Assembly: GCA_037441705.1 (NCBI GenBank) | Contig: JBBIRR010000001.1 | Span: 141,919 to 205,918, forward strand | Source of the DNA: Ignavibacteriales bacterium | GTDB lineage: Bacteria > Bacteroidota > Ignavibacteria > UBA10030 > UBA6906 | Length of the DNA: 64,000 nucleotides | Direction: 5' to 3' | Part shown: piece after piece, positions 19,284-41,514 of the stretch | Layout: each line of letters begins with the position of its first letter | Numbering within the stretch: position 1 is the stretch's first letter | The notes under the pieces: model-generated | Databases searched by the model: none | What the model saw: only the letters and a program-made list of their open reading frames with translations | What the model was told of the DNA's origin: nothing | Position numbers and translations under genes: made by a program

Positions 19284-21341
19284 CTAACGGCTCGGCTCTA
19301 CCGCCTTGCGCCCTCCTTCAAGCGGTCCGAAGAAGTTTCCCGTCTGAAGAAACAGCGTGAGCGTTCGAATACTCCAGTTGTAGTAGTTGTTCTCCAGAGG
19401 AAGAGTCGTTGCGACGTTGATGCGATAGGCGGCATCGGCAAATGCCTGGTACGCGGGCCCCGCCGCCATCGCCGCGGCACCGAACGGGCCGATGAAGATG
19501 CTCGTCGGCTCGCTGCGCACCGGCTTGCCGTCGAGGTAATACCCGTTGGCAATATTCGCCGCCCCGATGGACGATGCGAAGCGAACGATTTTCTCGCAGA
19601 ACTGCCGCGCGTCTTCGTTGCCGTACCACAGATAGTCCAGCGCGATGCGCCACGGCGTGCGCGCTGCATCCCAATAGTAGTAATAGCTCTGCGCGCGTTC
19701 GGGCGCAGGCGAGCCGTCCGCGCGACACCAGTCGGGCACCAGACCCGTTTCGGGGTGTGCGCATTTCTTGAGAATCTCATAGCATCGAGCAATCACTTTG
19801 CGCCACCCGGCGTTTCCCGTCGCCGCCTCGAAGGCGCGGTAGTACGCGGGAGCGAAGTAGGACGGATTGAGCATGTGCGAGCCGCCCCAATCGCCGTCGC
19901 CGGGCTTGAGAACGAACGTGTTCTTTTCGACTTCATGTTCCCAGATGCGATTGATGAGAAGCACTGCTTCGTGTTTGTAGTTGATGGCGCCGTCACTGCA
20001 CCACTGCCGGTCGGCGAGCAGCAGTGCGAATGCGGCATCCTCATCGGCATCCGTTGCGGCGCCTCCTTCGAGCACCTCGCAGGTGCTGCCGATGTGCCAT
20101 TCCATCAGCCCGCGCTCATTCATGAACTTCTTGTAATACAACCAGAGATCATCGAAGAGCGGACGGTCGTTGAAGTTCACGGCAAGCAGCATCCCATAGC
20201 CGATGCCCTCGGACGTCGTCGAGCTCATGTCATCGAACAGAACGCGACGAAGTCCGCACGCGCTATCGCCTGTCACATACGCACTCTTCCAACTTTCGTA
20301 CGACCGCTGCGCGTCAACATGGTTCCGGTATTTGCTCATGATGCCGAACGGGTATGCTGCATTCTGCGGAAAGGGAAACGTCACGCAGCCGCCGGCGTTC
20401 TTCGTTGACAGGATGGTGCCACTCGTGCCCACGATCAGGCCAACGACAGAATCGGCCATCGCAACGCCGCGCAAATCCTGTTCGGTCCCACTCGGTCGGC
20501 TCACCCACGTGAAACCACCGTCGGTCGAGCGGAGGATGGTTCCGCGTGACCCCACAACCGTCGCGTCGTGCAACGAAGAGGTCGCCACGTCCCAAAGATC
20601 GTGCGTCGTTCCCGATCGTACAGCAGTCCAGCTCACGCCTCCGTTTTCGGTCCGCAAGATGGTTCCTTTATCTCCGACGGCAAATCCATGTCTGTTTGTG
20701 GCAAAACGCATGCGGTAGAGCATCCCCTCCGATCCCTCGGCCACACGCGTCCACGATTCACCTGCATTCGTGGTCCGCAGGATGATGCCGTTCGAACCGC
20801 AAGCCAGAAAGGTCATCGCTTCAAGGCACTGGACGCCGCGCAAGTCGTTGTTAAACCCGCTCGTACTTTCGGTCCATGTCGTTCCTCCATCCGTCGTTCG
20901 AAGAACAACCCCGCCGTATCCTACGGCAAGGCCCGTCGTTGCCGTGCAGAATGAGACGTCGTACAACGACTTCGCCGTTACACGCTGAACCGAGGTCCAG
21001 GTTTTTCCTCCATCCGTCGTTCGAAGAATGACGCCGTTCCATCCAACAACATAACCAACAAAAGGAGACACGAAGGCAACACCGCTGAGCCAGGTGCCCG
21101 TTCCGCTTTGCTGCGCGCTCCACGTTGTTCCGCCATCCGCGCTGAAGAGAATCGTACCGCGTGCGCCGACGGCGACAGCGGTTCTTCTGTCGACAAAAGT
21201 AACGTCAGAGAGCGGAACGGTGACGCCGCTGGTTTGCTGCACCCACTGGGCGTGCAGGCGAGGACTGGCCGGCAGAAGAGTGAGAAGCCAGCAGGCGATT
21301 AAACGGAGAACAGGTTTCAGGCAAGATGTTGTGCGTAGCAT
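19284..21341 (-). CDS. BNR/Asp-box beta-propeller fused to a glycoside hydrolase family 8 (GH8) catalytic domain
   Basis: Signal peptide. Six SxDGGxTW Asp-box repeats (SADGGTTW, TTDGGKTW, TTDGGTTW, TENGGVSW, STDGGFTW...). The GH8 signature ATDADEDAAFALLLADRQW and catalytic-Glu motif TSEGIGYGML are present. Start overlaps the upstream GT4 stop (TGATG). Confidence 0.8.
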   Translation of the reverse strand: MLRTTSCLKPVLRLIACWLLTLLPASPRLHAQWVQQTSGVTVPLSDVTFVDRRTAVAVGARGTILFSADGGTTWSAQQSGTGTWLSGVAFVSPFVGYVVGWNGVILRTTDGGKTWTSVQRVTAKSLYDVSFCTATTGLAVGYGGVVLRTTDGGTTWTESTSGFNNDLRGVQCLEAMTFLACGSNGIILRTTNAGESWTRVAEGSEGMLYRMRFATNRHGFAVGDKGTILRTENGGVSWTAVRSGTTHDLWDVATSSLHDATVVGSRGTILRSTDGGFTWVSRPSGTEQDLRGVAMADSVVGLIVGTSGTILSTKNAGGCVTFPFPQNAAYPFGIMSKYRNHVDAQRSYESWKSAYVTGDSACGLRRVLFDDMSSTTSEGIGYGMLLAVNFNDRPLFDDLWLYYKKFMNERGLMEWHIGSTCEVLEGGAATDADEDAAFALLLADRQWCSDGAINYKHEAVLLINRIWEHEVEKNTFVLKPGDGDWGGSHMLNPSYFAPAYYRAFEAATGNAGWRKVIARCYEILKKCAHPETGLVPDWCRADGSPAPERAQSYYYYWDAARTPWRIALDYLWYGNEDARQFCEKIVRFASSIGAANIANGYYLDGKPVRSEPTSIFIGPFGAAAMAAGPAYQAFADAAYRINVATTLPLENNYYNWSIRTLTLFLQTGNFFGPLEGGRKAVEPSR

Positions 21342-22468
21342 CAGTGCTCCGTGGGAATTGATGATTCGGCAGCTTTGCGCAGTGTTTCGAGAATGACTTC
21401 TGCGTTGCGCTTCAGGTTGAATTCCCGCTCCGCTTTACGCCGTGCATTGGCGCCAAACTCACGACGAAGAGCGGGGTTGTTCATCAGCAGCAACAACCTC
21501 TCCGCCAGTGCCGCCTCATCCTCTCCACGAATCAGGAAGCCGGTGGTACCGTCCGTCACCATTTCGTCAATGCTGCCAAGCTCGGTAGCCACTACCGGAA
21601 GGTTCATGGCCATTGCTTCCATGATGGCAAGCGGAAAGAAGTCCGCGCGTGTCGGCAGCACGAACACGTCGGCCTGCTTGTAGAGGTGCAGGAGTTCGGG
21701 ACTGTTGGGAGAGATGTTCGAATGAATGACGACATTCCGCGGCCTTTCGCCGGCCGCGCTGTTTGTCACAAGATGAAACTCGCAATTCCTGAACGGCTCA
21801 TGGCGGGCGATGTTACACAGCAAATCTCCACCCTTCCGCATAAAATGATTGCCCACAAACAGGATGCGCACCTTCGACCCCGGCATTCGTTCAGAACTTT
21901 TCCAGAGATCGAGATCCACGCCCGGCGCAAGGACGCGAATTCTCCTCTCATCCACCCCATAATGTTCGATCAGCGATCGTTTCACCCAGTTCGACCAGGG
22001 CAGAAGAAAGGTCGTGTTCCGATACGTCCGACACGTTTGGAGAAACTTGATGCGTTCGATCAAATGCTTTTGCGATGAAGTAGGAACGCCGTACCACGCG
22101 CGATGCTCTTCCATCAGCAACGGTGTCACATCCATCGCCATCACGCTGGGGACGCGCTTGCGGAAGGTGTTCAAGAACGTCGCAGGAATGTGGTCGTTGA
22201 AATAGACTGCGTCGAATTTCTTTCCCGCTTTCAGCTCCCTGCGGATGCGCGACCGAGCAATCCATCCCCCCTTCAGAGTCCAGTTCAGCGAAATCGGAGG
22301 AATGCGCGCAAGAAGCTCCGGCGGACTGTACTCGATGGGAAGCCACGTGCACTCGACATCGTCACGCGCAGAGACGACGCCCCGCAGGTTCTGCAGCACC
22401 GTCGCCGTACCGCCAAACCACATGCCGGTGAACAAGAAACTCGGTTTGCCCTTATCCGACGAATTCAT
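21341..22468 (-). CDS. GT4-family glycosyltransferase
   Basis: C-terminal GT-B motif (VFVLPTRADFFPLAIMEAMAMNLPVVATELGSIDEMV). Start at ATG 22468 (MNSSDKGKPSFLF) is uncertain; ATG 22540 is possible. Confidence 0.7.
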   Translation of the reverse strand: MNSSDKGKPSFLFTGMWFGGTATVLQNLRGVVSARDDVECTWLPIEYSPPELLARIPPISLNWTLKGGWIARSRIRRELKAGKKFDAVYFNDHIPATFLNTFRKRVPSVMAMDVTPLLMEEHRAWYGVPTSSQKHLIERIKFLQTCRTYRNTTFLLPWSNWVKRSLIEHYGVDERRIRVLAPGVDLDLWKSSERMPGSKVRILFVGNHFMRKGGDLLCNIARHEPFRNCEFHLVTNSAAGERPRNVVIHSNISPNSPELLHLYKQADVFVLPTRADFFPLAIMEAMAMNLPVVATELGSIDEMVTDGTTGFLIRGEDEAALAERLLLLMNNPALRREFGANARRKAEREFNLKRNAEVILETLRKAAESSIPTEH

Positions 22469-22520
22469 GATGCCGTGTTTCCATTTGAATTTTTTGTTCG
22501 GGTAATGATATTCAATTCGC

Positions 22521-23888
22521 CTACCGCACCAATCGCCCATCCGTGAGGTACGCAGTAAGCAGCCTCGCAACAAAAGCATGCCCTCGTTCATTCCAATGAG
22601 GGTCATCATCAAGCACGAGCGGAAACTCCTCACAGGCACGAAATGCAGGCAGCAGGTTGAACACTACGTAAGGCAACTGCGGCGCCGCTTCATCAAAGAA
22701 TCTGAAGTACTCATCCTGATATGGCTCCGAGAGTGCGTACTCGTTTTTCTCCCAGTTGTTGGGACATTCATTCGGATTCCAATGCTGAAATCGAGGAGTG
22801 ACGACCAGAATGAACATCGCGCCAATGTCGTTGGCCTTTGAGGCAATACGATTGATGTGCGCCAGAGTGTTCAAGAAGTACCCTCGTGTGCTTGCCAGAG
22901 GATGTCGGTAAATGAAGAATCGGTTGTGCTCAACGACGCCATCAATCTTCACTGCAAAGTCATAATAGTCATATCCCGCCTGACGGGTCACGCTTGCTCT
23001 TGCATCGCCCCTGTTCGACAGAGCGTAGCGCACGACACTGAACGGGTAGCTGAGATATCGGCGTATCTTTTCAAGTTGGAAGGATGACACGTTCCCAAGC
23101 GCAGTGTGAAAGCCCATCTCCTCGGTAGACGATTCAGCCAAGTTGAATTGGCTCTGGTCACCATCGCCCTGTATCTCTGCTGCATATTTCATGTCATCAC
23201 CGATATCCGTTGCATCCAGAAAAAGGATAACGTGAGTGGGCGCGTAATGGATCACGATGCCGGAGAACAGTCGCTCTTCCAGAAGTGGCGAGTAGCTGTT
23301 GATCCCGGCATTGAGCACCGCAACGTCATTGCGGCCCAGTTGTTCTCGGAGCAGACGCTCGGCGACAGCCGGAAAAGCAAACTCCTGTCTCACACACTTT
23401 CCGAAGGTGAAGGAATCGCCAAGAAGAGCAATTCGGGTCTTGAAGGCGCGGAATGCTTCACGCGAGTACAAGCTCCTGAGGCCGTCCTCATTCGTTCGGA
23501 CAATAACCCGCTTCCCATCGAAGATGCCTGCATTCATTTCCGCGTTCTTCGGAAGCAGATGGTGGTATGTTCTGGAACTGATGCCATGGAACTCCGGCAT
23601 GGCAGCAGGCGGATTGAACATGCGCAGACCCAATTCCACCCCCACCAGGGTTACCAGTACCGTACCCACCAGAAGGAGAATTTCTCTCCATCGCTGGCGT
23701 CCTCTGAACGCGAGGAAGATTCCGATGATGCTGAGGAGCCAATAGGCAACCAGCGAGCCAATGAGTGCCTCGTCAACTTTCCCGTCCGCCGCAATGAAAT
23801 CAAGAAGATGCCAGTACACAGCCAGAGCGGCCATCAGGAAGAAGGCCGTAATCGCAACCATGAGGGTGCTATCGGTATTCCACTTCAT
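22521..23888 (-). CDS. Membrane-anchored SGNH/GDSL-family hydrolase (polysaccharide esterase or acyltransferase candidate)
   Basis: Two N-terminal TM helices. GDSL block IALLGDSFTFG with catalytic Ser. C-terminal DDDPHWNERGH block. Overlaps the upstream GT4 by ATGA. Confidence 0.6.
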   Translation of the reverse strand: MKWNTDSTLMVAITAFFLMAALAVYWHLLDFIAADGKVDEALIGSLVAYWLLSIIGIFLAFRGRQRWREILLLVGTVLVTLVGVELGLRMFNPPAAMPEFHGISSRTYHHLLPKNAEMNAGIFDGKRVIVRTNEDGLRSLYSREAFRAFKTRIALLGDSFTFGKCVRQEFAFPAVAERLLREQLGRNDVAVLNAGINSYSPLLEERLFSGIVIHYAPTHVILFLDATDIGDDMKYAAEIQGDGDQSQFNLAESSTEEMGFHTALGNVSSFQLEKIRRYLSYPFSVVRYALSNRGDARASVTRQAGYDYYDFAVKIDGVVEHNRFFIYRHPLASTRGYFLNTLAHINRIASKANDIGAMFILVVTPRFQHWNPNECPNNWEKNEYALSEPYQDEYFRFFDEAAPQLPYVVFNLLPAFRACEEFPLVLDDDPHWNERGHAFVARLLTAYLTDGRLVR

Positions 23889-25078
23889 GCAGCAAAGTCG
23901 TTGCAGCTGTTGGATGATTTCCGTTCTACAACATTCCTCAACTCGTGGAGGCTTTCCGCGTTCCAGCGCTCGACAAAGCGATACGCAGCGCGAGCCAGTG
24001 AACGGGCACGAGCGGCATCGCGGGCGACATGCAACACGGCTTGCGCAAAATCGTCGGGCGAGTCTGCAACGAGAAACGCCTGCCCGGCTCCATCCTCAAG
24101 ACCACGCGACCCGGCAGACGTTGTGACGACCGGCCTCCCGTAGCCAAGCGCCTCGATGGTCTTGATGCACAGTCCGGTGCTGAACTCAATGGGATTTACG
24201 ACAATATCAGCCACTTCGTACAGAGAATCAAGATCATCCACCACGCCGTGCTTGATGCAGCCCTCGGCATCCGGCACGTTGTCACAAATCTGCCCGGCAA
24301 GGTGTAACATGGCGTGCGGTACTACGCGTCGAATGCGCGGAAACGTTTGTGCGAGAAAGGAACGAAGACCGTGAATGTTCGTCCCCGCATCCGAACCGAT
24401 AAACAGGAGGTTCGCCTCATTTCTCTCTCGCGGAGGCAGGGCGCGAAGCGGAGCAATATGCCGGACGGTAATGACCGGCCTGGATGTGAGCCGCGAGAAA
24501 TATTCCCTTTCCTGATCCTGAATTGCTACAACGACATCGGCGCGGTTCAAGGCTTTCGCTTCTTCCTTCGCGGTAGTACAGTACCATCCGTAGTCTTGCC
24601 CCGCTTTGCGATACAGCATGTGTCGCCTGGTGAATACGTCGTGCGTGTCGATGATCTTCAGAACGCTATCGTCGAAACAGTCCAACGCTTTCGACCAAAA
24701 GATATATTCGACAATCACCACATCGAAGCGTGTGGACTTCGCCAACTCTCGCAGGACGAGATCGAGCGCGTTGTCGTACCGATAGTCCACCGGCTGGATT
24801 TCCAAGAATCCCGGCTCGAAGAGAAAACGCAAGCGGGAGATGTAGCGCCGGAGACTCCGCGGCGGATGACGATACGCGACACGATAGAAATGCTTGCCCC
24901 ACCACCGTGCCATCGCCTCCTCGTCCGCCTTCCATGGTTCGGTGTTCACGCAGAGAAAGTGCACTTCATGTCCCATGTCACGCAGACTTTGCAGCAGCCG
25001 CTGAATGCGCGTGCGGTTACCCGCGATCTGGGGGTGGGTGGGGATGGGTGAGATGAGGAGAATGCGGCGCCTCATCAT
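23885..25078 (-). CDS. GT4-family glycosyltransferase
   Basis: GT-B fold with EX7E-like region (ADIVVNPIEFSTGLCIKTIEALGYGRPVVTT). Confidence 0.7.
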   Translation of the reverse strand: MMRRRILLISPIPTHPQIAGNRTRIQRLLQSLRDMGHEVHFLCVNTEPWKADEEAMARWWGKHFYRVAYRHPPRSLRRYISRLRFLFEPGFLEIQPVDYRYDNALDLVLRELAKSTRFDVVIVEYIFWSKALDCFDDSVLKIIDTHDVFTRRHMLYRKAGQDYGWYCTTAKEEAKALNRADVVVAIQDQEREYFSRLTSRPVITVRHIAPLRALPPRERNEANLLFIGSDAGTNIHGLRSFLAQTFPRIRRVVPHAMLHLAGQICDNVPDAEGCIKHGVVDDLDSLYEVADIVVNPIEFSTGLCIKTIEALGYGRPVVTTSAGSRGLEDGAGQAFLVADSPDDFAQAVLHVARDAARARSLARAAYRFVERWNAESLHELRNVVERKSSNSCNDFAA

Positions 25079-26340
25079 CGCTTCCCGCTCAGGTGATTCT
25101 GTATCAAGGACTTCAGTACGTCAAGTGTCTCGCGAATCATCCGGTCTTCCGAAAACTGCTGCACCCTTGCCTCCGCAGCGATGGCCATCGCCCTCATCTG
25201 GTCAGGATGGGTTAACGCCCATTGGAGCGCTTCTGCCCAACCGTGCACGTCGCTTGCGGACACGATCAGACCGTCTACGCGATGACGAATGACTTCGGGG
25301 ATTCCTCCTACATCCGAGGCAACAACAGGAACTCGCTGTGCCATGGCTTCGAGTATGGTAAACGGCAGCCCTTCGAATTCTGTGGGCAATACAAAAAGAT
25401 CTGCCGCGCGCATCAGGCGCGGCACATCCGACCGATATCCGAGAAAGAGAACGTTGCTGGCGATGCGATGCTCGGCCGCTTCTCTTGCAATGCACTCTTT
25501 ATCTTTTCCCTCCCCCACCCATACACAACACACGTGGGAAAAATCTCGGATGATATCGGGTAGCACACGAACGAGAAGCCCAAAGCCTTTCGTCAACTCC
25601 AATCGGGCAACCGTGAGAAGCATGATCGAACGATCCGACAGGCCAAGTTCCGCTCGGACCTCCTCACGAACGGTGGCCGCATCATCACGAGGGCTTGGCG
25701 ATGTCAGACGAATCCCATTATAGATTCTGACAACTTCGTCTTTATCCAGGCCGAAGGTCTGACTGATAAGCGACCGGTTGAAATCGGACACTGTGACCCA
25801 GCGCTGACGACGTTGTCGCGCCCAGTGGTAAACTCTTCGCTTCGCTGCGCGAAAGGCGAAAGGAAAAGGATACCCATGAAAAACGACAGCCGTGGGGACG
25901 TTCACAACGGCACATCCGGCAATTATGCCAAGCCCGAAGGTTCCCCAGCATATGTTCAGAAGGACAACATCAGGTTGTACACTTCGCAGGAGTTTCACCG
26001 TCCGCATCAACTGCGAGACCGTGCGCTGAACTTCGGCAAGCCGATGAAAGGTTCGCTCAACGCCTCTGAGCATTCGTCGAACCACACTGCGCTCCCGCGG
26101 TCGTTCGTGTTTCCACGTGTGCTCGGTTTGCAGCACTGCAAAATGTTGTAGCGGGAGACGAAACGTATGGCACGCGATCCCATCGTGCGTCAGTTCCTCG
26201 ACCAACGGTAGCGTCTGCGGGGTCTCGGTCACAGCAGCATGAACATCCCATCCCTGAATGCAGGCGCGTGCAATGGTCTGCGCGTACTTTTCGGCACCTC
26301 CGCGTTCCACCGCAGGTATGATGACCAGAAGCTTCTTCAT
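25075..26340 (-). CDS. GT4-family glycosyltransferase
   Basis: ADLFVLPTEFEGLPFTILEAMAQRVPVVASDVGGIPEVI. Start ATG 26340 overlaps the upstream stop as ATGA; the longer ORF-track extension is rejected. Confidence 0.75.
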   Translation of the reverse strand: MKKLLVIIPAVERGGAEKYAQTIARACIQGWDVHAAVTETPQTLPLVEELTHDGIACHTFRLPLQHFAVLQTEHTWKHERPRERSVVRRMLRGVERTFHRLAEVQRTVSQLMRTVKLLRSVQPDVVLLNICWGTFGLGIIAGCAVVNVPTAVVFHGYPFPFAFRAAKRRVYHWARQRRQRWVTVSDFNRSLISQTFGLDKDEVVRIYNGIRLTSPSPRDDAATVREEVRAELGLSDRSIMLLTVARLELTKGFGLLVRVLPDIIRDFSHVCCVWVGEGKDKECIAREAAEHRIASNVLFLGYRSDVPRLMRAADLFVLPTEFEGLPFTILEAMAQRVPVVASDVGGIPEVIRHRVDGLIVSASDVHGWAEALQWALTHPDQMRAMAIAAEARVQQFSEDRMIRETLDVLKSLIQNHLSGKR

Positions 26341-27365
26341 TGCTTCGAACCTGCAAGCCATTGCAGCATCTGGCGTTCGAACTGTTCTCCGTTCCAATCC
26401 AAAACAGAGAATCGAGGGAGTTGGAAGCAATCCATCCCTATCGTGACAGGGCTGTGCGTGACAGAACACGCAGCCACGTAGCCTTCGTTCCGTACGATTG
26501 CAGCTGTTTCATCCGTGTAGCGGCCAAAGGGATAGGAGAATGTGGTTATCTCCTGCTTCAGAAGCTCGCGAAGATACGACCTGCTTTCTCGGATCTCGTG
26601 CCGCTGCTGTTCCAGGGGTAGTTCCGTGAGCAGGGCGTGGGTGACCGTATGCGCGCCAATGCTGACAAGCCCTCCATCGGCCAACGTACATACTTCCTGG
26701 GGAGTGAGCGAACGGTGGCTTTCGCGCAGGCTGGGTTCGGTTGCTGCCCACGATTGGATCTCTGTCAGCAACTGCGTTCGGTGCTGATGCGGTACAGAGC
26801 GGAGTTTTTCCCACACGGCGTAGTAGAACTGCGTGCGCCGACTGGGCTCGCGCGTGTGCCTGCAATCGTGATGGTACTCCTCTTCACTGTAGACTTCGGC
26901 TCCTCCGAGGTCCCAGGTCCACTCCCCATCGCGAAGCGTGAGCCTCGATGGCAATCTACCGGGACGCAGCAGTGCTTGCTCTAATTCATCCCACCAGTAC
27001 TCTTTGCGGGCGCCGAGATACCCTGTCGTCACAAAGACCGTCGCCGGGATTTCGTATCGTTCGAGGATGGGTTTGGCCTGATACAGGTTGTTTGCGTATC
27101 CATCATCGAAGGACACGACAACCGAGCGGTCCGCTAAACGTCCCTGATCCAAAGCGACCGGGAGTTCATGAAGATGAATGGGCCGCGCCCGCGTGCGGAG
27201 GATTCTCATCTGCATATCAAAATGTTCCGGGCTCACTCGGAGATACCACGGGTCGGCGTCAAGGTCACCCACCCGATGATACATGAGAATGATCGCGCGC
27301 GGCTGCTGCAATCCTCTGAAGTTCTGCTTCACCCACTGCAGGCGTGTAAGGCCGGGTACTCTCAT
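26337..27365 (-). CDS. Polysaccharide deacetylase (CE4 / NodB-homology domain)
   Basis: NodB motifs (VVSFDDGYANNLYQAKPILERYEIPATVFVTTG; AHTVTHALL). Start ATG 27365 (MRVPGLTRLQW) overlaps the upstream stop as ATGA. Confidence 0.75.
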   Translation of the reverse strand: MRVPGLTRLQWVKQNFRGLQQPRAIILMYHRVGDLDADPWYLRVSPEHFDMQMRILRTRARPIHLHELPVALDQGRLADRSVVVSFDDGYANNLYQAKPILERYEIPATVFVTTGYLGARKEYWWDELEQALLRPGRLPSRLTLRDGEWTWDLGGAEVYSEEEYHHDCRHTREPSRRTQFYYAVWEKLRSVPHQHRTQLLTEIQSWAATEPSLRESHRSLTPQEVCTLADGGLVSIGAHTVTHALLTELPLEQQRHEIRESRSYLRELLKQEITTFSYPFGRYTDETAAIVRNEGYVAACSVTHSPVTIGMDCFQLPRFSVLDWNGEQFERQMLQWLAGSKQ

Positions 27366-32582: not shown

Positions 32583-32595
32583 GGAAACTCCTGAA

Positions 32596-33953: not shown

Positions 33954-35435
33954 TCAAGGACTTGGCAGCGGGAGACGTCCGGAAACTGCCACAAGAGCAT
34001 ACAAAAAGCAGATGATAATGCCTGTTGGCAACATCACCCAGGCCCAATGGTGCCGGTGTTTGAAGCCCACGATTCCCTTCATGCTCAGAGGCAAAAGCAA
34101 TGGAATCACATCAATAGCATAGAGCATTCGTGCGGCAACCGCCATGTGGATGAGCGTAAAAGTCCCAACAGCCACAACAATCGGCCACGCGCGCGTCGGT
34201 AGGGCACGCGCACCACCGAGAAGGGCAAAGGCAAGAAACAGCCCGTGCTCCAGCATTAGAAAATAGTCGGAGAAGCTGGCTGCTTGACCGTAGGCCTCAG
34301 GAACTTTCCAGTTGAACCACAGCGGCAGGGCACGGTAGAAGGAAAGGAGAACGTACTCTCCGGGATGCGAGAGGATAATGCGCGCAGATTCCTTCTGCAA
34401 CAGGCGGTCGAATTCTGCTTCGTTTTCGCGCCCCGTGAGTTCTGGATGTTTTGACACAAAGGCCAACAGCGCACGCTCGGTCCCCGGGCCCGCCACAAAC
34501 GGTACGAACTTGCCCTCTTCCAAGAAATGGTTCTGACGATAGAGATTATACCCAAACAACGTTGTCCCAATAACCGGACGGCCGAACGCGAGATAGTTCC
34601 TCGCAATCCAAGGCAGTTGGACGGCAGAGAAGACAAGCAGGAATAAACCAACGGCACGGGCGTTCATCGCTGCACGTTGGTTGTTCAACGCCGGTTTCTT
34701 CCATGCAATCACAGCCAACCCCGTCAGCCCCAGAGCCACAGCCATGAATGCAGAGCGAGACAACACCGCCAGGCCCAGCATCAGGCCCGAGGCTGCCCAC
34801 CAGCCGGTGCCGCCATCAGACCAAGCACGCGCGAAGAAGGCAAGCGACCATACGGCACACGCAGCAGCGATAAGGTCAACCTCCTTGGCGGAGACTTCTC
34901 GAATTGCCGGAAGGTACACAACCCAGAACAACGCGGAGATCATCGCAAGCCGGTTGTCCTCAAGCCTCCGTGCAAGAGCGACGATGCCAAAGAGGGTTAT
35001 GATCCGGATAGCGATGTGGAACGCGCCGAGCGCAAAGTACGAACCGCCTGCAAGCAGACCGATCCCGGCAAAGAGCAAGACGGGCACAGGCTCTCGTGCC
35101 GCGCTCACCTTATTGCTCGGACTGCTGAACGGGAAATACGATGGCGCAATGAAACTGTATCCTTCGCCCTTCCGCAGTGACTCGGCAATATCCCACGACA
35201 TTCCGGTAAACGATATTGCTGAATGCCGTGAATGCCAAACATGATAACCATCGATCGCCACAATCATCAACGCCAGGGCGAGGAGGATGGTTATGGAAGA
35301 GCGATCGCCCCGAAGCAGGAATTGCTCCTTCACCATCCTCACAACACCTTCTATCCGTTTTCCAAGGTTCTGACTCATAAGAGAAAGAAGTTGAGCTTTT
35401 TGTGTGTCAGACGTGTGACGCCCACGAGTTGCCAT
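33954..35435 (-). CDS. GT-C-fold polytopic membrane glycosyltransferase (ArnT/PMT-like)
   Basis: More than 10 predicted TM helices with a periplasmic-loop-rich architecture. Sits between wzt and wzm. Family call comes from topology and resemblance only; the start could be 35336. Confidence 0.45.
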   Translation of the reverse strand: MATRGRHTSDTQKAQLLSLMSQNLGKRIEGVVRMVKEQFLLRGDRSSITILLALALMIVAIDGYHVWHSRHSAISFTGMSWDIAESLRKGEGYSFIAPSYFPFSSPSNKVSAAREPVPVLLFAGIGLLAGGSYFALGAFHIAIRIITLFGIVALARRLEDNRLAMISALFWVVYLPAIREVSAKEVDLIAAACAVWSLAFFARAWSDGGTGWWAASGLMLGLAVLSRSAFMAVALGLTGLAVIAWKKPALNNQRAAMNARAVGLFLLVFSAVQLPWIARNYLAFGRPVIGTTLFGYNLYRQNHFLEEGKFVPFVAGPGTERALLAFVSKHPELTGRENEAEFDRLLQKESARIILSHPGEYVLLSFYRALPLWFNWKVPEAYGQAASFSDYFLMLEHGLFLAFALLGGARALPTRAWPIVVAVGTFTLIHMAVAARMLYAIDVIPLLLPLSMKGIVGFKHRHHWAWVMLPTGIIICFLYALVAVSGRLPLPSP

Positions 35436-35447
35436 CGCCGTCGTCGT

Positions 35448-36272
35448 TCAGATGACATCGGCAAATGTTCGCTCCGTTCGGCGGAAGTACCACATGCCCG
35501 AAAGCATCAACAGAGCGACAATCGAAATCGAAAGCACGAGCCCCGGCAGAAACAACTGCTGCGCTCCACCCAGGAGCGACCAGCGGATGCCGTCAATCCC
35601 CGCTGCCATTGGATTGACGTAGTACAGCAATCGCCATTGTTCCGGGATGACGCTGCTGGTGAACCCCACAGGCGAGACGTACACGCCAAGCTGAATGACA
35701 AATGGAATGATGTGCTGAAAATCCCGATACTTCACATTCAGCGCAGCGAACCACAGGCCCAGGCCGAGCGACGCGCCGAGTGTGAAAAGCAGAAACAGCG
35801 GAAACAGCACCACGCGGCCATCGGGAACGACGCCGTACCATCCCATCAGTCCCGCCAGCATCAGTGCGGAAATGCCGAAGTCAACCAGACTTGTGATGAT
35901 GGCACTGAGCGGTATGATGAGACGCGGGAAATACACTTTCGAGATCATTCCTGCGTTCTTGGTCATGCTGTAGCTGCATTCGGACAGCCCGTTGGCAAAA
36001 AGTTGCCATGGAAGAATGCCGGCGAAAACCAGGAGAGGATACGGGACTCCTTCGGAAGGAAGCCCGGCGATTCTGCCGAAGATGATCGTAAAGATGACCA
36101 TTGTGAGCGCCGGACGCACAAACGCCCATGCAACGCCGATCACCGTCTGCTTGTAGCGGACGAGAATGTCGCGCCAGGCGAGAAAGAGGAACAGTTCGCG
36201 GTAGCGCCAGATATCGCGCCAGTACTGTGCTTCCGTCCTTCCTGCTTCGATGATGACTTCGGGTGTCTCCAC
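35448..36272 (-). CDS. wzm: ABC-2-type polysaccharide exporter permease (Wzm/KpsM/TagG)
   Basis: Six TM helices. N-terminal WRYRELFLFLAWRDILVRYKQTVIGVAWAF is the characteristic ABC-2 signature region. Confidence 0.8.
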   Translation of the reverse strand: METPEVIIEAGRTEAQYWRDIWRYRELFLFLAWRDILVRYKQTVIGVAWAFVRPALTMVIFTIIFGRIAGLPSEGVPYPLLVFAGILPWQLFANGLSECSYSMTKNAGMISKVYFPRLIIPLSAIITSLVDFGISALMLAGLMGWYGVVPDGRVVLFPLFLLFTLGASLGLGLWFAALNVKYRDFQHIIPFVIQLGVYVSPVGFTSSVIPEQWRLLYYVNPMAAGIDGIRWSLLGGAQQLFLPGLVLSISIVALLMLSGMWYFRRTERTFADVI

Positions 36273-36309
36273 GGCGCCTGAAAAGTTTTGATAAGGTTCT
36301 GATTCTGAT

Positions 36310-37416
36310 TCACAGGGATCCGCTTCGAAGACGCGCCATCCGACCGTGATGAATTCTGTCGTACAACCGGCGCGGGCGTGCGTTTTCTCCTGTCGGAGGT
36401 TCCTGCTGAGCTGTGTGCGGCTGCGCGGCAGGTTCGGAATTCCCTTCTTTCTTTGTCAGAGCACCACGCAACGAACGCCACCCGCGGTCGTCCTGCAACA
36501 ATCGTGATGTCACCGGATGGGTAATGAACCGAATCAGTGCCTTCAGCAGCGTGAGATGGAACTCGGAGGACACAATCCGCAACAGGTCGGCGGCAAAGCT
36601 CCTCCACAGATACACAAGCGTCACTCCGTACTGACTCTGCCGGTTACTCTTGCCCGTAAGATATAAATAGAAGTAACTCTTGGAATATCGTGTGATAGAT
36701 GCCGGCACCCGGGGATTGCGATGACGAAGTTCCGTCGTAAAAGCCGCAAAGGCCCGCTCCATCCGCCGGTGGTTTGCCGAGAGGCTGGTCAACACTTCGC
36801 GGTAGCCGACGAGAATCTTCGGCACAAGCCGATACTGAAAGCGTTCGGCAATCCGAAGGTACATATCCCACTCCTCGCACGGTGTCGTGGCGCCGTTGTA
36901 CAGGCCCACAGCATCGAAGCAAGACCGACGGATCAACGCGCAGCTTCCGTTGCCGAGAAAGTTGGAGAACATGAGGTCGGCGACCACATTACCCTCATAT
37001 CTGTGCGTGATGGGAACAATGGGCCGATCATCTTCATCAATAATCATGGACCAGCAATAGATGAGGCCCACGCTGTCCTCGCAGTCCTGCATTACCCTCA
37101 CCTGCTCGCTCAGTTTTTCCGGATACCACACGTCGTCCGAATCGAGCGGGGCAATAAGGTCGCCCTTCGATTGCTGAATGCCGAGGTTGCGTGCCGTGGC
37201 GACGCCGCCGTTGTCTTTCCGCAGCAGAACGACGCGCCCATCCTGCTGGCAGAATGACTCAACGATCTGCGGCGTCTCATCGGTCGAGCCGTCATCCACC
37301 ACGATGATTTCCATGTTGGGATACGTCTGCCCCACCGCCGAACGCAGCGTGCGCTCGATGAAGCGTGCCGCGTTGTACGAAGGAATGACAACAGAAACCA
37401 AGGGATGTGTGGGCAC
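36310..37416 (-). CDS. GT2-family glycosyltransferase
   Basis: VSVVIPSYNAARFIERTLRSAVGQTY...IIVVDDGSTDETP...LDSDDVW. Confidence 0.8.
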   Translation of the reverse strand: MPTHPLVSVVIPSYNAARFIERTLRSAVGQTYPNMEIIVVDDGSTDETPQIVESFCQQDGRVVLLRKDNGGVATARNLGIQQSKGDLIAPLDSDDVWYPEKLSEQVRVMQDCEDSVGLIYCWSMIIDEDDRPIVPITHRYEGNVVADLMFSNFLGNGSCALIRRSCFDAVGLYNGATTPCEEWDMYLRIAERFQYRLVPKILVGYREVLTSLSANHRRMERAFAAFTTELRHRNPRVPASITRYSKSYFYLYLTGKSNRQSQYGVTLVYLWRSFAADLLRIVSSEFHLTLLKALIRFITHPVTSRLLQDDRGWRSLRGALTKKEGNSEPAAQPHTAQQEPPTGENARPRRLYDRIHHGRMARLRSGSL

Positions 37417-37515: not shown

Positions 37516-40191
37516 TCATCGAACGAGAACAAGCTTACGTGTGGCAACGAAACTGCCTGCTCGGAGACGATAGTAGTATACACCGCTGGCAAGCCCGTCA
37601 CCATGAAAAACCACTTGATGATACCCGGCTTCCTGATGCTGCGCCACGAGGCGTGCCACCTCACGGCCGAGGCCATCATAGACAACCAGCGAAACGACGC
37701 TTGCGCGCGGCAGACCGAACCGAATGAGCGTTGTCGGGTTTGCCGGATTGGGATAGTTTTGCAGCAGTTCGAATGCCTTCGGTGTTTCTGCAGCCTCGGC
37801 CACGTCAGTCAGATGAACACGAAAGTTCCGCACCTCACCGAACTGGCCCCATCCTGCTTCGTTCCTCGCTCGCACCCTCCACCAATAACTTCTCGAGTTG
37901 GCAAGTTGCCGCGCAGTCGTTGTCGTATCAACCAGCAAGGAGTCGACAAGCGGCGAAGAGAAGAGCGAGTCTGTGGCCAGTTCAAGCCAGTAGCGCACAA
38001 CGTCCGGCCGACTTTGACGCCAGATGAGACGGACCGTGTCCGTACCGATCAGCGCATTGGGCGCAGGCGAAACCAGCGCCACCGGCTCGGGCAGCTGAAC
38101 GAGCGTCCGGAAACTCCAGCGATCCGACCACGGACTTGTCCCACCGGCGTTCGTTGCATTAACCCTCCAGTAGTACCACTGGCCGCGCTGCAATCCTGCA
38201 ACCGTGCGAGCTGTGTCGCTCAACGTGGAGTCATCGACCTCGAGCGCCGTGAACAGCGAATCGGCCGCCACCTGAAGGCGATACCGATCAGCCTCCGCGC
38301 TTCGATGCCAGACGACAGGAAGCGTCGTCGGGTGACCGACAGAGAGATTGGCCGGTGAAAGCAATTGCGGCGCAAGGGGCGCTGCAAGGACGGTCATGAA
38401 ATTCCACCACGGACTGAATTCTCCCCACCCCATATCGTTCCTCGCACGTGCGCGCCAGTAGTAGCGCGTGTTGTTCGCCAGTTGGCTCACAGTCGTGGTC
38501 GTGTCGGTGAGAGATGTATCTCGCACGGCAGGCTGCGCGCTCGTGTCGGTTGAAAGCTCAAACCAGTATCCGCTTACGTTCATTGGTCCATCACTCTCCC
38601 ACCATAGTTTTTTTGTTGGTGAAATGACGGACGTTTGGTCCGCGCCGCGATGCCACATGAACGTCACGCTCGTCGGCTGGTTCAGAGCATTGTTGGGAGG
38701 GCTGAGCAAAGCAACCTGCATCGGAACGCCAAGCGTCTTGAAGCTCCGCCATGGAGAAAACGCGCTGGTGCCCGCGCCGTTCCTCGCATTCACCTTCCAA
38801 TAGTACCACGTCAACGGCTGAAGATTCTCCAGTTGATAGGTCGTGTCGGTGATCAGCGAATCATTGACAACGAGTTGGATGAACGACGTGTCGAGTGCAA
38901 CCAGCACGCCATAGCTCGAGGCGGTGGACGACGTGCGCCAGAGAAGTGCTGTTGACGGTGGGTGACCGACGGACCCATTCAGCGGCGACACAAGCTCCGG
39001 GGCACTCGGCGGCAGAATCGGAACGCTGTCCAGCGGATTGAAGAAGTTCCCCGTCTGCAGGAACAGGGTGAGCGTTCTGAGGCTCCAGTTGTAGTAGTTG
39101 CCGTTCACAAAGGGCGGGACGGTTGCGACGTTATCGTCGTAGGCCGAATCGCAAAATGCCTGATACGCCGGAGTGGTCCCCATCGAGCCGGCGGCAAACG
39201 GCCCGACGAACACGTTGATGTGCTGCTGCCCGATGGGAGTGCCGTCAAGGTAGTATCCCTCGCGGATATTGACTGAACCAATCCCGCGTGCGAAGTCGGA
39301 TATTTTTTGCAGGAACACTCTCGCCCGGTTGTCGCCAAACCACACGTAGTCAACGGCAATGCGCCAGGGCGTGCGGGTCGCGTCGTAGTAATAATAGTAG
39401 GCGAACCCGGGTGCCGGCTGCCCGCTCGCCTGACACCAGTCGGGCACGAGACCGGTGTTGACATGCGCGGCGCGCTGGAGAATCTCATAACACTTCGTCA
39501 CAACGCTATCCCATCCCGGATTGCCCGTGACGGCACGAAAGGCTCGATAGTACGCAGGAGCAAAGTAGGATGGATTGAGAACGTGCGACCCGCCCCAGTA
39601 ATCGCCGGGCTTCAGCACGTACGTGTTGGGTTCAACTTCGTACTGGTAGATGCGATTGATTTGGGTGATTGCATGCTGAAGATAATTGATCGCGCCGGTA
39701 CTGCCCCACTGCTTATGTGCCAGCAGCAAAGCAAAGGCAGCATCTTCATCGGCGTCGGTTGCTCCGCCATCACCCAGAATCTGACCGCAATTACTGCCGA
39801 TCCACCAGTGCATCATGCCGCGCGGGTCCATGTGCGCCATGTAGTAACGCCACAGATCATCGAACAACGCGCGATCGTTGTAGTTCACCGACAGCAGCAT
39901 GCCGTAGGCAATCCCCTCCGAGTACGTCGAACTCATATCATTGAAGAGCACGCGGCGGTACCCGCATGCCCCGCTGGTGGTCACATAGTTGTTTTTCCAG
40001 GCAAGGTACGACGATTCGGCAGGAACATGGCTTCGCGCGGTGGGCATGATGCCGTACGGGTACGTGGTGTTCTGGGGAAAGGGGTATCGCGCCTGCGCGT
40101 GTGCCGGCTCTACAGCGATGAAGCAGAGAAGCACAGCCTTGCATGCCGCAAGCAGTATTACGTCCGACGCGCGCGTAGGTTCACCTCTCAT
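37516..40191 (-). CDS. Secreted GH8 glycoside hydrolase with about five FN3-like repeats and T9SS (Por) C-terminal sorting domain
   Basis: Signal peptide. GH8 signature ATDADEDAAFALLLAHKQW and TYSEGIAYGML. Repeated P.L.SP.N...YYW.V.A.N..G.S.FS modules. C-terminus LLQNYPNPANPTTLIRFGLP...VYDGLGREV...SGVYYYRLRAGSFVATRKLVLVR matches the Por_Secre_tail consensus. Confidence 0.85.
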   Translation of the reverse strand: MRGEPTRASDVILLAACKAVLLCFIAVEPAHAQARYPFPQNTTYPYGIMPTARSHVPAESSYLAWKNNYVTTSGACGYRRVLFNDMSSTYSEGIAYGMLLSVNYNDRALFDDLWRYYMAHMDPRGMMHWWIGSNCGQILGDGGATDADEDAAFALLLAHKQWGSTGAINYLQHAITQINRIYQYEVEPNTYVLKPGDYWGGSHVLNPSYFAPAYYRAFRAVTGNPGWDSVVTKCYEILQRAAHVNTGLVPDWCQASGQPAPGFAYYYYYDATRTPWRIAVDYVWFGDNRARVFLQKISDFARGIGSVNIREGYYLDGTPIGQQHINVFVGPFAAGSMGTTPAYQAFCDSAYDDNVATVPPFVNGNYYNWSLRTLTLFLQTGNFFNPLDSVPILPPSAPELVSPLNGSVGHPPSTALLWRTSSTASSYGVLVALDTSFIQLVVNDSLITDTTYQLENLQPLTWYYWKVNARNGAGTSAFSPWRSFKTLGVPMQVALLSPPNNALNQPTSVTFMWHRGADQTSVISPTKKLWWESDGPMNVSGYWFELSTDTSAQPAVRDTSLTDTTTTVSQLANNTRYYWRARARNDMGWGEFSPWWNFMTVLAAPLAPQLLSPANLSVGHPTTLPVVWHRSAEADRYRLQVAADSLFTALEVDDSTLSDTARTVAGLQRGQWYYWRVNATNAGGTSPWSDRWSFRTLVQLPEPVALVSPAPNALIGTDTVRLIWRQSRPDVVRYWLELATDSLFSSPLVDSLLVDTTTTARQLANSRSYWWRVRARNEAGWGQFGEVRNFRVHLTDVAEAAETPKAFELLQNYPNPANPTTLIRFGLPRASVVSLVVYDGLGREVARLVAQHQEAGYHQVVFHGDGLASGVYYYRLRAGSFVATRKLVLVR

Positions 40192-40335: not shown

Positions 40336-41514
40336 TTACGGGCGTGGATTTCGTGGCCTAAATTCAGCGACGCGCTTGCGAGAAAAGCCGAAGGAATTCT
40401 TGATGATGGCCACGATTCGCTGTGCCGCTTTCCCATCGCCGTAGGGGTTGACAGCGTTTGCCATCCTGCGGTACTCACGCTGATCGTTCAGCAGTACAGT
40501 TGCTGCGCGGAAAATTCGCTCTTCGTTCAGCCCTACCAGACGTGCCGTACCGAATTGAATGGCCTCAGGACGCTCTGTCACCTCTCTCAGCACCAGCACC
40601 GGCTTTCCCAGCGCCGGCGCCTCTTCCTGTATCCCGCCTGAATCGGTGATGATCAGATGAGCCTTCGCCATGAGATGGATGAATTCCAGATAGCCCAACG
40701 GCTCCAGAAGGCAGACGTTGGAGAGGCCGCCGAGAATCGGAACAACAACCTCGCGCACGACCGGATTGAGATGAACCGGAAAGACGAAGAGGTCCTCCGG
40801 ATGACGCGACGCGAGCTTTTTCACTGCACGGCATGCGCCGCGCATCGGTTCCCCCCAATTCTCACGCCGGTGCATGGTCAAGAGAACAATCCGACGCGGC
40901 AATTGCATGATACGTGCAACGGTCCGTGCATGCGGCTTGAAGGGCCGTTGAAGCGCAATCCGTAGCGCGTCGATGACAGTATTGCCGGTGACAAAAATCC
41001 GCTCGGGTGGATAATGCTCGGCGAGCAGTGCGTCCTTTGCCGCTTGCGTCGGGGCGAAGTGCAGGTCGGTCACCGAACTTGTAAGCCTGCGGTTGATTTC
41101 TTCCGGAAACGGATGCGCCTTGTCGTTCGTTCGTAAGCCGGCCTCAACATGTCCAACGGGAATGCGGCGATAGAAGGCCGCCAGGCTTCCCACGAACGTC
41201 GTGGTCGTATCCCCCTGGACGAGAACCATGTCCGGCTGTTCCTTTTCCAGAACGGCATCCAGGGCCGACATCGTTCTGCTGGTGAGCGTCGCAAGAGATT
41301 GCCGCGGCTGCATCAGGTTCAAATCGTGTTCGGGCCTGATGGCAAATACGTCCAACACCTGATCAAGCATGTGGCGGTGCTGCGCGGTCGCAATCGTTAC
41401 CACACGAAACAACCGCGCTTGGTTCCTGAGGGCGAGAATGACGGGAGCTAATTTGATGGTATCCGGGCGCGTGCCGAAAATGACTGCAATGCGTTTGCGC
41501 TGTTTCCGTTTCAT
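40336..41514 (-). CDS. wecB: UDP-N-acetylglucosamine 2-epimerase (non-hydrolysing)
   Basis: IAVIFGTRPDTIKLAPV...HVEAGLRTNDKAHPFPEEINRRL...GNTVIDAL. Start at ATG 41514; the upstream extension translates a tandem DNA repeat (HHFNHHFN) and is rejected. Confidence 0.85.
   Translation of the reverse strand: MKRKQRKRIAVIFGTRPDTIKLAPVILALRNQARLFRVVTIATAQHRHMLDQVLDVFAIRPEHDLNLMQPRQSLATLTSRTMSALDAVLEKEQPDMVLVQGDTTTTFVGSLAAFYRRIPVGHVEAGLRTNDKAHPFPEEINRRLTSSVTDLHFAPTQAAKDALLAEHYPPERIFVTGNTVIDALRIALQRPFKPHARTVARIMQLPRRIVLLTMHRRENWGEPMRGACRAVKKLASRHPEDLFVFPVHLNPVVREVVVPILGGLSNVCLLEPLGYLEFIHLMAKAHLIITDSGGIQEEAPALGKPVLVLREVTERPEAIQFGTARLVGLNEERIFRAATVLLNDQREYRRMANAVNPYGDGKAAQRIVAIIKNSFGFSRKRVAEFRPRNPRP

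Follow-up and report, generated by a model that had tools for sequence, protein, structure and literature searches.

The 64,000-nucleotide stretch of Ignavibacteriales bacterium contig JBBIRR010000001.1 analyzed here (assembly GCA_037441705.1, positions 141,919 to 205,918; hereafter the window) contains sixteen consecutive co-directional minus-strand open reading frames (ORFs; 19284-41625, with the actual start of the leading gene, wecB, at 41514) that form a glycan biosynthesis cluster with a Wzm/Wzt ABC exporter and two embedded glycoside hydrolases of family GH8 (Table 1). An earlier note, made from the letters alone, had described sixteen genes at 19284-41514 joined by at least six start/stop overlaps, and both statements held when the ORFs were inspected and the junctions read base by base. 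Five of the overlaps are of the ATGA type, with start codons at 28267 (X645/GT2b), 27365 (GT2b/CE4), 26340 (CE4/GT4b), 25078 (GT4b/GT4c) and 23888 (GT4c/SGNH), and the sixth is a TGATG overlap between the GT4d stop and the BNR-GH8 start at 21341; the remaining intergenic gaps span 6-144 bp. Pfam and NCBIfam hidden Markov models also recovered the domain calls made earlier for all 16 proteins, that of the SGNH hydrolase slightly below threshold in the window and with confidence in an orthologue (L006). The proposal that GH8 genes stand first and last was correct for the last (16th) gene only, because WecB leads and GH8-Fn3 is second, whereas in a relative in which WecB is absent (L101 plus L006) GH8 genes do occupy both ends. 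With one direction, six overlaps and no intergenic terminator beyond chance, the sixteen genes appear to form an operon-like cluster.

Table 1 Features of the glycan cluster and its immediate borders, in the order of cluster transcription (TM, transmembrane; PLP, pyridoxal phosphate; T9SS, type IX secretion system).
Feature	Coordinates	Strand	Matches and remarks
PAS/HisKA_3 histidine kinase and NarL/LuxR-type response regulator	41690..44406	+	Pfam; divergent from the cluster
WecB	40336..41514	-	TIGR00236, 480 bits (cutoff 210); non-hydrolysing UDP-GlcNAc 2-epimerase; ATG start chosen at 41514
GH8-Fn3	37516..40191	-	PF01270, 7.7e-68; fn3; TIGR04183, 35.6 bits (cutoff 23)
GT2a	36310..37416	-	PF00535, 5.9e-39; soluble inverting GT-A, no TM segment
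Wzm (ABC-2 permease)	35448..36272	-	PF01061, 7.4e-22; multiple TM segments
GT-C (PMT_2/ArnT-like)	33954..35435	-	PF13231, 43.4 bits (cutoff 26.1); between wzm and wzt
Wzt (ABC ATPase)	32596..33897	-	PF00005, 1.7e-23; PF14524 (Wzt_C), 37.1 bits (cutoff 30.4)
DegT-family PLP aminotransferase	31392..32582	-	PF01041, 7.8e-129; start codon uncertain, 32582-32624
GT4a	30228..31385	-	PF13692 and PF00534; retaining GT-B; WcaL-like (WcaL 145 bits, under cutoff)
X645 (645 aa)	28264..30201	-	PF00534 and PF13692 on the C-terminus only; fifth GT4
GT2b	27362..28267	-	PF00535, 4.1e-30; soluble inverting GT-A, no TM segment; stop overlaps CE4 start (ATGA)
CE4 de-N-acetylase (PplD/IcaB/PgaB subtype)	26337..27365	-	PF01522, 1.1e-24, in two stretches; insertion of ~110 aa
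GT4b	25075..26340	-	PF00534, 6.5e-37; retaining GT-B
GT4c	23885..25078	-	PF13692, 2.8e-18; retaining GT-B
SGNH/GDSL hydrolase or acyl-transferase-like	22521..23888	-	PF13472, 30.0 bits (cutoff 32.9); GDS and DxxH motifs
GT4d	21341..22540	-	PF13692 and PF00534; retaining GT-B; stop overlaps BNR-GH8 start (TGATG); start codon uncertain, 22468-22573
BNR-GH8	19284..21341	-	PF14870, 6.4e-33; PF01270, 2e-68
tRNA-Pro(GGG)	19133..19207	-	Rfam RF00005, 62.5 bits, and ARAGORN; 3' boundary of the cluster

The GH8 enzymes and their conservation in related loci

GH8-Fn3 is composed of a signal peptide (predicted cleavage AHA/Q), a GH8a catalytic domain, four Fn3-like repeats and a C-terminal sorting domain (CTD) of type-A T9SS cargo, recognized by TIGR04183 and, under its 27-bit Pfam cutoff, by PF18962 (5e-05, 23.9 bits); the protein is predicted to be surface-attached or secreted. 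BNR-GH8 carries a signal peptide (predicted cleavage LHA/Q), a Ycf48-like BNR beta-propeller and a GH8a catalytic domain. Pfam and NCBIfam domain searches found no T9SS sorting domain on it, and a signal peptide without such a tail predicts a periplasmic location. The A/Q ends of both signal peptides fit the 'Q-rule' of Bacteroidetes signal peptidase as set out in PMC5837995. The two catalytic domains are 61% identical to one another.

Among enzymes of solved structure, the Clostridium thermocellum endoglucanase CelA (1CEM) aligned with GH8-Fn3 at 330 bits (49.3% identity) and with BNR-GH8 at 300 bits (46.5%), scores 2.4-2.6 times those of the chitosanase ChoK (1V5C; 124-129 bits), while BcsZ structures reached about 40 bits and the BcsZ model NF008305 gave 79.6 and 61.1 bits against a cutoff of 299, with no BcsA/BcsB present. 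The catalytic residues E95, D152, Y215, D278 and R281 (CelA numbering) are invariant in all 15 locus-linked GH8s, and the base position is an Asp in the window enzymes (YDATR) and in CelA (D278) but an Asn in ChoK and in the 5XD0 glucanase. Both enzymes thus possess the E95, D152, Y215 and Asp base set of GH8a and, because of this base and of CelA scores far above those of ChoK and BcsZ, their sequences assign them to that subfamily (CelA, cellulase/xylanase type) and to neither the chitosanase nor the BcsZ type. Given intact catalytic residues and signal peptides, both look active and exported.

These comparisons dispose of an argument of the earlier note, which from the occurrence of chitosanases in GH8 had proposed a partially de-N-acetylated amino-sugar exopolysaccharide; made specific, this would be a chitosan-like polymer, a partly de-N-acetylated beta-1,4-hexosamine chain, with the GH8 pair acting as chitosanases. 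A carbohydrate esterase of family 4 (CE4) with intact metal-binding and catalytic motifs, the presence of amino-sugar genes and the residual similarity to ChoK would be in line with such a product. The catalytic base and the relative scores, however, exclude a ChoK-type identity of the GH8 enzymes, and no processive synthase of the NodC or PgaC type was seen in the cluster, both family 2 glycosyltransferases being soluble, so that we consider a chitosan-like polymer highly improbable. Listeria PssZ, considered as a precedent for a GH8 enzyme associated with ManNAc, was also discarded, since it is classed in GH126 and not in GH8 and offers a loose analogy only.

The Fn3-like repeats of GH8-Fn3 (residues 395-800) were found to contain 10 D(S/T)(A/I/L/V/M/T) motifs where about 1.7 are expected, and the whole protein 13 against 2.7 expected, a count reached in none of 2000 shuffles; BNR-GH8 is not enriched in the motif. 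We take this motif to be the O-glycosylation sequon of Bacteroidota, and its excess could reflect conservation of the repeats instead of glycosylation; a literature search for an O-oligosaccharyltransferase of Bacteroidota yielded no usable result.

Relatives of the cluster were found in metagenome-assembled genomes (MAGs) and metagenome contigs variously labelled Bacteroidota, Ignavibacteria or Chitinophagales, all from uncultured organisms; when genome contigs were scanned with BNR-GH8, only two loci were retrieved, a 2.9-kb fragment among them. In SRR27730034_33265 (L101 plus L006) 15 genes are fully collinear with the window, with amino-acid identities of 52-80%, in the order GH8-Fn3, GT2a, Wzm, GT-C, Wzt, DegT, GT4a, X645, GT2b, CE4, GT4b, GT4c, SGNH, GT4d and BNR-GH8, although both flanks are unlike those of the window. 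Locus L008 reads WecB, an additional 596-aa GH8-T9SS, GH8-Fn3, GT2a, Wzm, GT-C, Wzt and DegT and shares the kinase/regulator flank of the window; WecB is therefore a variable member, present in L008 and absent in L101, and the position of GT-C is kept in both. In the window, L006 and L007, GT4d either overlaps BNR-GH8 at the stop/start junction or directly abuts it; L007 has lost the SGNH gene. The comparison of synteny in related genomes that the earlier note had suggested as a check thus came out in favor of the cluster as a unit: because the whole gene order is conserved in other lineages, the grouping is more than a chance one, and the GH8 genes are integral, conserved members of the cluster and not chance neighbors.

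A neighbor-joining tree of 95 aligned GH8 domains, 15 locus-linked and 80 stand-alone from the metagenome scan, gathered all 15 locus-linked domains in a single clade that includes none of the 80 stand-alone homologues, and this monophyly argues that the three GH8 paralogue types arose inside the locus. Cluster genes were found near the GH8 gene in none of the 29 stand-alone loci longer than 12 kb. A distant Wzm/Wzt cluster (L099), with homologues of GT2a (47% identity), Wzm (60%) and Wzt (63%), has no GH8; its 702-aa protein encoded at 6584-8692 (plus strand) joins a GT-C-like membrane domain (weak PMT_2/DUF2142) to a C-terminal Ycf48-like propeller 47% identical to that of BNR-GH8 in the window, which makes the propeller a recurrent extracytoplasmic module of such clusters. 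L099 further holds a second PMT_2 protein and two large proteins without a family match.

Export, assembly and modification genes

Wzm and Wzt constitute a recognizable exporter pair, to which the TagH and galactan-Wzt models gave 189-201 bits, under their equivalog cutoffs, and the C-terminal carbohydrate-binding domain of Wzt would imply that chains are recognized by a capped end. Wzx/Wzy families were matched by none of the 16 proteins, and seven of the eight glycosyltransferases (GTs) are devoid of TM segments, as is typical of assembly in the cytoplasm. Methyltransferase, kinase or Kdo-transferase families that could terminate the chain were not found among the 16 proteins. Domain matches thus support the earlier description of the locus, in which a glycan pathway dependent on an ABC transporter is accompanied by amino-sugar genes, a CE4 and an SGNH enzyme.

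The eight GTs comprise five of family GT4, two of family GT2 and one of the GT-C fold. The best structural matches of GT2a were two enzymes that polymerize ABC-dependent capsules, K4 chondroitin polymerase (103 bits) and heparosan synthase (76 bits), with ArnC at 30 bits. No locus variant lacks GT2a and no other GT accompanies the GH8 genes as constantly, and we regard it as a candidate for the beta-linkage or backbone polymerase. A 'three-component' donor synthase of the GtrB/ArnC type was rejected for either GT2, as neither has TM helices or a good ArnC score (27-44 bits).

X645 combines a GT4-type GT-B domain with an N-terminal clade-specific domain of about 240 aa carrying a DGHHR motif, which had no Pfam match. 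Its AlphaFold2 model (predicted local distance difference test score, pLDDT, 80.8) retrieved MshA, PimB' and SPS with Foldseek through the GT-B part only, in agreement with the predicted fold of that part. The N-terminus has low confidence in the full-length model, and a model of it alone (pLDDT 50.9) was unusable for fold searches. A profile search of this region against the PDB returned only sub-threshold matches (E 0.05-1), 10 of 11 of ParB/Srx fold and including a Pyrococcus furiosus SerK-like protein, a free serine kinase and sulfiredoxin, and the two alignments shown meet at the DGHHR motif. One possible role of the domain is that of a phosphotransferase capping the chain for recognition by the carbohydrate-binding domain of Wzt. 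Twenty-four homologues of X645 were found, and the full length is covered only by the window copy and four others (60-76% identical); within residues 1-245 the motif Y(F/Y)VIK(D/H)GHHRFA is invariant. For the GT-C protein, a hydropathy scan revealed many overlapping TM-like segments, which we read as roughly a dozen helices, and no sequence match was found in the PDB.

WecB is assigned from its strong family match to the supply of UDP-ManNAc or a related sugar. The DegT aminotransferase is closest to ArnB, as judged from PDB entry 1MDO (314 bits, against 227 for the next family) and from NF008658 (377 bits, under its cutoff of 631); ArnB makes a 4-amino sugar from a UDP-4-keto sugar. The CE4 protein retains the NodB-type metal-binding and catalytic motifs FDDG87, HTVTH239 (H239xxxH243) and YPFG278, scores under cutoff with IcaB (66.9 bits) and PgaB (48.8 bits) models and has PplD (6DQ3) as its best PDB match. 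Neither its 342-aa nor its 425-aa reading has a signal peptide or TM segment, and its orthologues likewise begin at the overlapping ATG. The enzyme is therefore probably cytoplasmic and would act on a cytoplasmic lipid-linked glycan, and the analogy once drawn with PgaB and PelA fails, since it cannot work like those extracytoplasmic enzymes or like IcaB. The SGNH protein has three N-terminal TM helices (residues 5-34, 40-63 and 68-91), and its catalytic domain is predicted to face the periplasm.

Four of these genes lend themselves to another interpretation, in which an Arn/Lgm/Gac-like module of DegT, GT2, CE4 and GT-C makes a polyprenyl-phosphate amino sugar that is deacylated and then moved by GT-C to the exported chain or to lipid A, the CE4 substrate being a lipid-linked monosaccharide and not a polymer. 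The clear proximity of DegT to ArnB, a PMT_2/ArnT-like GT-C encoded between wzm and wzt, the overlap of the GT2b and CE4 genes and a CE4 that is probably cytoplasmic, as ArnD is, all agree with such a module. Streptococcal GacI/J/K/L together with PplD supply a precedent (PMC8807736). On the other hand, the two GT2s lack the C-terminal TM helices of the ArnC and GtrB types and score poorly with ArnC, the CE4 matches PplD, IcaB and PgaB, ArnD not being among the matches at the thresholds used, and neither an ArnA-type decarboxylase/formyltransferase nor an ArnE/F-type flippase is encoded in the window. The same absences, with the sub-cutoff ArnB-like score and the low ArnC scores, exclude a full Arn pathway to 4-amino-4-deoxy-L-arabinose (L-Ara4N). 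The module would account for four of the 16 genes, is silent on the GH8 enzymes and is compatible with GH8s that process the glycan as well as with GH8s anchored by it (see below); we consider it improbable.

Beyond the BNR-GH8 stop, 77 bp downstream, comes the tRNA-Pro(GGG) gene that bounds the cluster, and on its far side lies a gene for a LuxR-type response regulator (18228-18881); the adjacency of GH8 and this regulator recurs in L002, with identities of 87% and 93%. A role of the tRNA gene as attachment site of a genomic island was dismissed, because the cluster sits 5' and not 3' of it and its GC content equals that of the flanks. At the opposite border, the divergent kinase/regulator pair is a candidate for regulation of the cluster and adjoins it in L008 too (response regulator 93% and histidine kinase 70% identical). 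It opens a plus-strand run of signalling genes (41690-51387) encoding the PAS/HisKA_3 kinase, the LuxR-type regulator, a receiver-PAS protein, a 962-aa kinase with five PAS domains, a receiver-HDOD and a receiver-HD protein, the first four of which flank the cluster in L008 as well. A Lon protease gene followed by two Hsp20 small heat-shock genes (11783-15728, minus strand) is apparently unrelated to the cluster. Two long plus-strand antisense ORFs, 28249-30231 (660 aa) opposite X645 and 35232-36281 (349 aa) opposite Wzm/GT-C, are regarded as non-coding shadow ORFs of the genes on the minus strand, the DNA being GC-rich.

Role of the GH8 enzymes

The explanation that we favor, with a probability of about 0.45, is that the surface glycan produced by the cluster is exported by Wzm/Wzt and has a beta-linked backbone that two dedicated GH8 glycanases, one periplasmic and one delivered by the T9SS, would cut, GT2a being the candidate polymerase. 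The product would be an O-antigen-like or capsule-like surface heteropolysaccharide of a T9SS-bearing, Bacteroidota-type bacterium, and we infer its order of synthesis, the GH8 substrate and its fate as follows. The chain would be assembled on a cytoplasmic lipid carrier by the two inverting GT2 and the five retaining GT4 enzymes from donors that would include a ManNAc-type sugar (WecB) and a 4-amino sugar (ArnB-like DegT), and would be partly de-N-acetylated by the cytoplasmic CE4 prior to export. Its capped end would be recognized by the C-terminal domain of Wzt, upon which Wzm/Wzt would export the chain, and in the periplasm GT-C and the membrane-anchored SGNH protein may modify or transfer the exported glycan. 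The two CelA-type GH8a endo-glycanases would cut a beta-(1,4)-type linkage, most likely made by GT2a, and together, BNR-GH8 in the periplasm and GH8-Fn3 at the surface via the T9SS, would trim, size or release the polymer.

Hydrolases encoded within polysaccharide loci generally act on the locus product, and BcsZ, PslG, PelA, PgaB, AlgL and ExoK/ExsH are known to act on their own polymers. For this reason, and because the GH8 genes are monophyletic, were duplicated inside the locus and hold a conserved position in it with translational coupling, and because GT2a, the only inverting GT constantly associated with them, is maintained alongside, we suggest that the GH8 enzymes act on the glycan of the cluster. 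Control of chain length or release by the GH8 pair, as originally hypothesized, is a plausible hypothesis.

Several observations speak against such a role. Only three clade-specific substitutions, none at a catalytic position, separate the locus-linked from the stand-alone GH8s and nothing in them suggests a specificity changed from that of the stand-alone homologues, the domains are close to a genuine cellulase (46-49% identity to CelA), and a heteropolymer assembled mostly by retaining GT4 enzymes would not readily be expected in a cleft shaped for linear beta-1,4 chains. An initiating phosphoglycosyltransferase and a ligase (WaaL/LCP) are absent from the 16 genes and the examined flanks, and no outer-membrane export component was found in the locus; in known systems the genes for the initiating enzyme and the ligase often lie elsewhere, so that their absence does not exclude membership. 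Scans of the cluster for sigma-70 promoters and intrinsic terminators, of a kind that does not cover Bacteroidota promoters, gave counts equal to the shuffled expectation, and the sole strong consensus match within its intergenic gaps, a sigma-70-like site at 40281-40309 (minus strand; TTGACT/17-nt spacer/TATATT, 10 of 12 matches), falls in the 144-bp gap between wecB and GH8-Fn3.

Reduced loci weigh in the same direction. L096 consists of MFS, GT2a, GT4d and BNR-GH8, and L004 and L090-L095 of GH8-T9SS, GH8-Fn3, GT2a and BNR-GH8; L004 and L090 are without the Wzm/GT-C/Wzt/DegT/GT4/CE4/SGNH block, yet their three GH8 genes and GT2a are intact. Between these two loci, 77-85% identical in nucleotide sequence, the ratios of nonsynonymous to synonymous substitution rates (dN/dS) of the module genes are 0.083, 0.112, 0.084 and 0.143 (0.084 for GT2a), and the compact module is thus maintained by purifying selection without Wzm/Wzt. 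It follows that the role of the GH8s is not strictly dependent on the exporter and that the constant partnership is that of GH8 with GT2a, not of GH8 with the exporter. The module genes have diverged at synonymous sites (dS 0.64-0.86) roughly half as far as the flanking PhoU, PHO4 and ETF genes (dS 1.5-2.4), which could result from exchange of the module between lineages or from different codon constraints.

A variant that starts from this partnership pictures GT2a and the GH8s as maker and cutter, analogous to BcsA/BcsZ within a lipid-linked Wzm/Wzt pathway, with GT2a building a beta-1,4 backbone and a propeller-targeted periplasmic GH8 and T9SS-delivered surface GH8s sizing or releasing the chains; in this specific form we hold it to be unlikely. 

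A locus in an 'Ignavibacteria bacterium' MAG (L097, GCA_040290295.1) indicates the direction of change. At 11139-11536, and likewise at 1630-2027 of L098, it carries a deletion scar, with codons 1-46 of wzm joined to the final 88 codons of GT4b (Wzm residues 1-46 fused to GT4b residues 327-414), from which it follows that the compact forms derive from an ancestral full cluster. In L097, GT2a, GT4c and all three GH8 genes are frameshifted and the flanking genes for an 809-aa kinase and an 858-aa reprolysin are intact; the frameshifts may come from a single underlying dataset. This joint decay of the GH8s and the pathway suggests functional dependence and pulls in the opposite way to the persistence of the module without exporter in L004 and L090.

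The persistence of GH8+GH8+GT2a+GH8 modules under purifying selection without Wzm/Wzt would also be expected if the GH8s were ordinary secreted cellulases or beta-glucanases used for feeding, one exposed at the surface through the T9SS and one periplasmic, that leave the locus product uncut and are linked for co-regulation only to a cluster that makes the lipopolysaccharide (LPS)-type glycan by which type-A T9SS cargo is anchored. Their identity to CelA, the full catalytic set with almost no clade-specific change, the type-A CTD of GH8-Fn3 and the abundance of stand-alone GH8 homologues not linked to glycan genes all point this way. In Cytophaga hutchinsonii, moreover, six of six GH8s have T9SS CTDs, and 67% of CTD proteins, endocellulases among them, are mis-anchored when the O-antigen ligase is lost (PMC11611037). 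Pure cargo, on the other hand, does not explain the co-maintenance of GT2a with the GH8s after loss of the pathway, and BNR-GH8, the member most tightly coupled to the GT genes, is without a CTD. The decay of the L097 GH8s along with the pathway, the monophyly of locus-linked GH8s, none of which was seen outside the locus, and the lack of SusC/D-like uptake or other cellulolytic genes in the flanks examined also tell against it, and we regard anchored cargo as rather unlikely, though it is the strongest of the rival explanations.

Should the favored role in glycan processing be correct, the rule that every exopolysaccharide machine carries its own glycanase would extend to ABC-dependent glycans, and glycan processing would be tied to type IX secretion. 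A true maker-and-cutter pair would give Bacteroidota a new way of making a cellulose-like or beta-glycan surface polymer and would be the first case of T9SS-delivered processing hydrolases built into an ABC-dependent glycan system, while GH8 cellulases anchored by the glycan would provide a compact genetic example of cargo encoded beside its anchor. Under either reading the cluster is a defined 15-gene unit with natural deletion variants that can be used for testing, and its practical impact is limited for now because the organisms are uncultured MAG lineages.

Comparison with known systems

At its core the cluster follows the usual plan of Wzm/Wzt pathways whose Wzt bears a carbohydrate-binding domain. 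Synthase-dependent and Wzy-dependent exopolysaccharides are known to have dedicated hydrolases, but for Wzm/Wzt pathways we are aware of none, nor did the literature searched describe any; in particular, it contained no pairing of GH8 with Wzm/Wzt. As far as we could find, a conserved set of two or three CelA-type GH8s, one a T9SS cargo and one fused to a propeller, within a Wzm/Wzt cluster has not been described before.

The ABC-dependent O-antigen pathways of Escherichia coli O8/O9a and Klebsiella O12 and the WzmWzt system of Aquifex aeolicus have in common with the window the Wzm and Wzt_C-bearing Wzt pair, cytoplasmic GTs only, the absence of Wzx/Wzy and the lack of an initiating enzyme and a ligase in the locus. 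The window differs from them in adding two or three secreted GH8s, a cytoplasmic CE4, a membrane SGNH protein and a GT-C, in having no recognizable WbdD-type kinase/methyltransferase terminator, for which the X645 N-terminal domain is the only candidate, and in its host, a T9SS-type bacterium of the Fibrobacteres-Chlorobi-Bacteroidetes (FCB) group.

The earlier note had not recognized as described the combination of a deacetylase and dedicated hydrolases with ABC export and amino-sugar chemistry, which stands for the embedded GH8s but not for CE4, ABC exporter and GT-C, already known together from the streptococcal Gac/PplD systems, where PplD de-N-acetylates the GlcNAc linkage unit of rhamnopolysaccharides exported by GacDE and decorated by the GT-C GacL (PMC8807736). 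Common to both are an ABC-exported lipid-linked glycan, a GT-C and a PgaB/IcaB-like CE4, PplD being the best solved relative of the window enzyme. PplD is, however, extracellular and TM-anchored and acts on the linkage GlcNAc, whereas the CE4 of the window has no TM segment or signal peptide and carries an insertion of ~110 aa; the window is without a GtrB/GacI-type membrane GT2 and the Gac system without a glycoside hydrolase. With C. hutchinsonii the window shares GH8 enzymes with a T9SS CTD in Bacteroidota, where anchoring of CTD proteins depends on the LPS glycan; the review cited (PMC11611037) does not mention that those GH8 genes lie inside a glycan biosynthesis cluster, a point not itself examined, and BNR-GH8 of the window has no CTD.

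The cellulose (BcsA/BcsZ), poly-N-acetylglucosamine (PNAG; PgaB) and Pel (PelA) systems share with the window the idea of a locus-encoded glycanase or deacetylase, and BcsZ is likewise a GH8, with a GT2 as the constant GH8 partner in the window also. Because the window has no membrane synthase, cyclic di-GMP receptor or outer-membrane porin and its proteins fall short of the BcsZ and PgaB equivalog models, gene content places the cluster outside these three systems; its GH8s are of the CelA type, its deacetylase is predicted to be cytoplasmic, its export relies on Wzm/Wzt and delivery of its hydrolases partly on the T9SS. A further parallel is offered by Sinorhizobium meliloti, where ExoK and ExsH, endo-glycanases linked to exopolysaccharide synthesis and secreted by different routes, cut nascent succinoglycan into smaller chains. 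As in the window, two endo-glycanases of differing secretion are tied to a polysaccharide locus, the role of the GH8 pair being a predicted one, but ExoK and ExsH belong to GH16 and to a Wzx/Wzy-dependent pathway with type I secretion, whereas the window combines GH8 enzymes with Wzm/Wzt export and type IX secretion.

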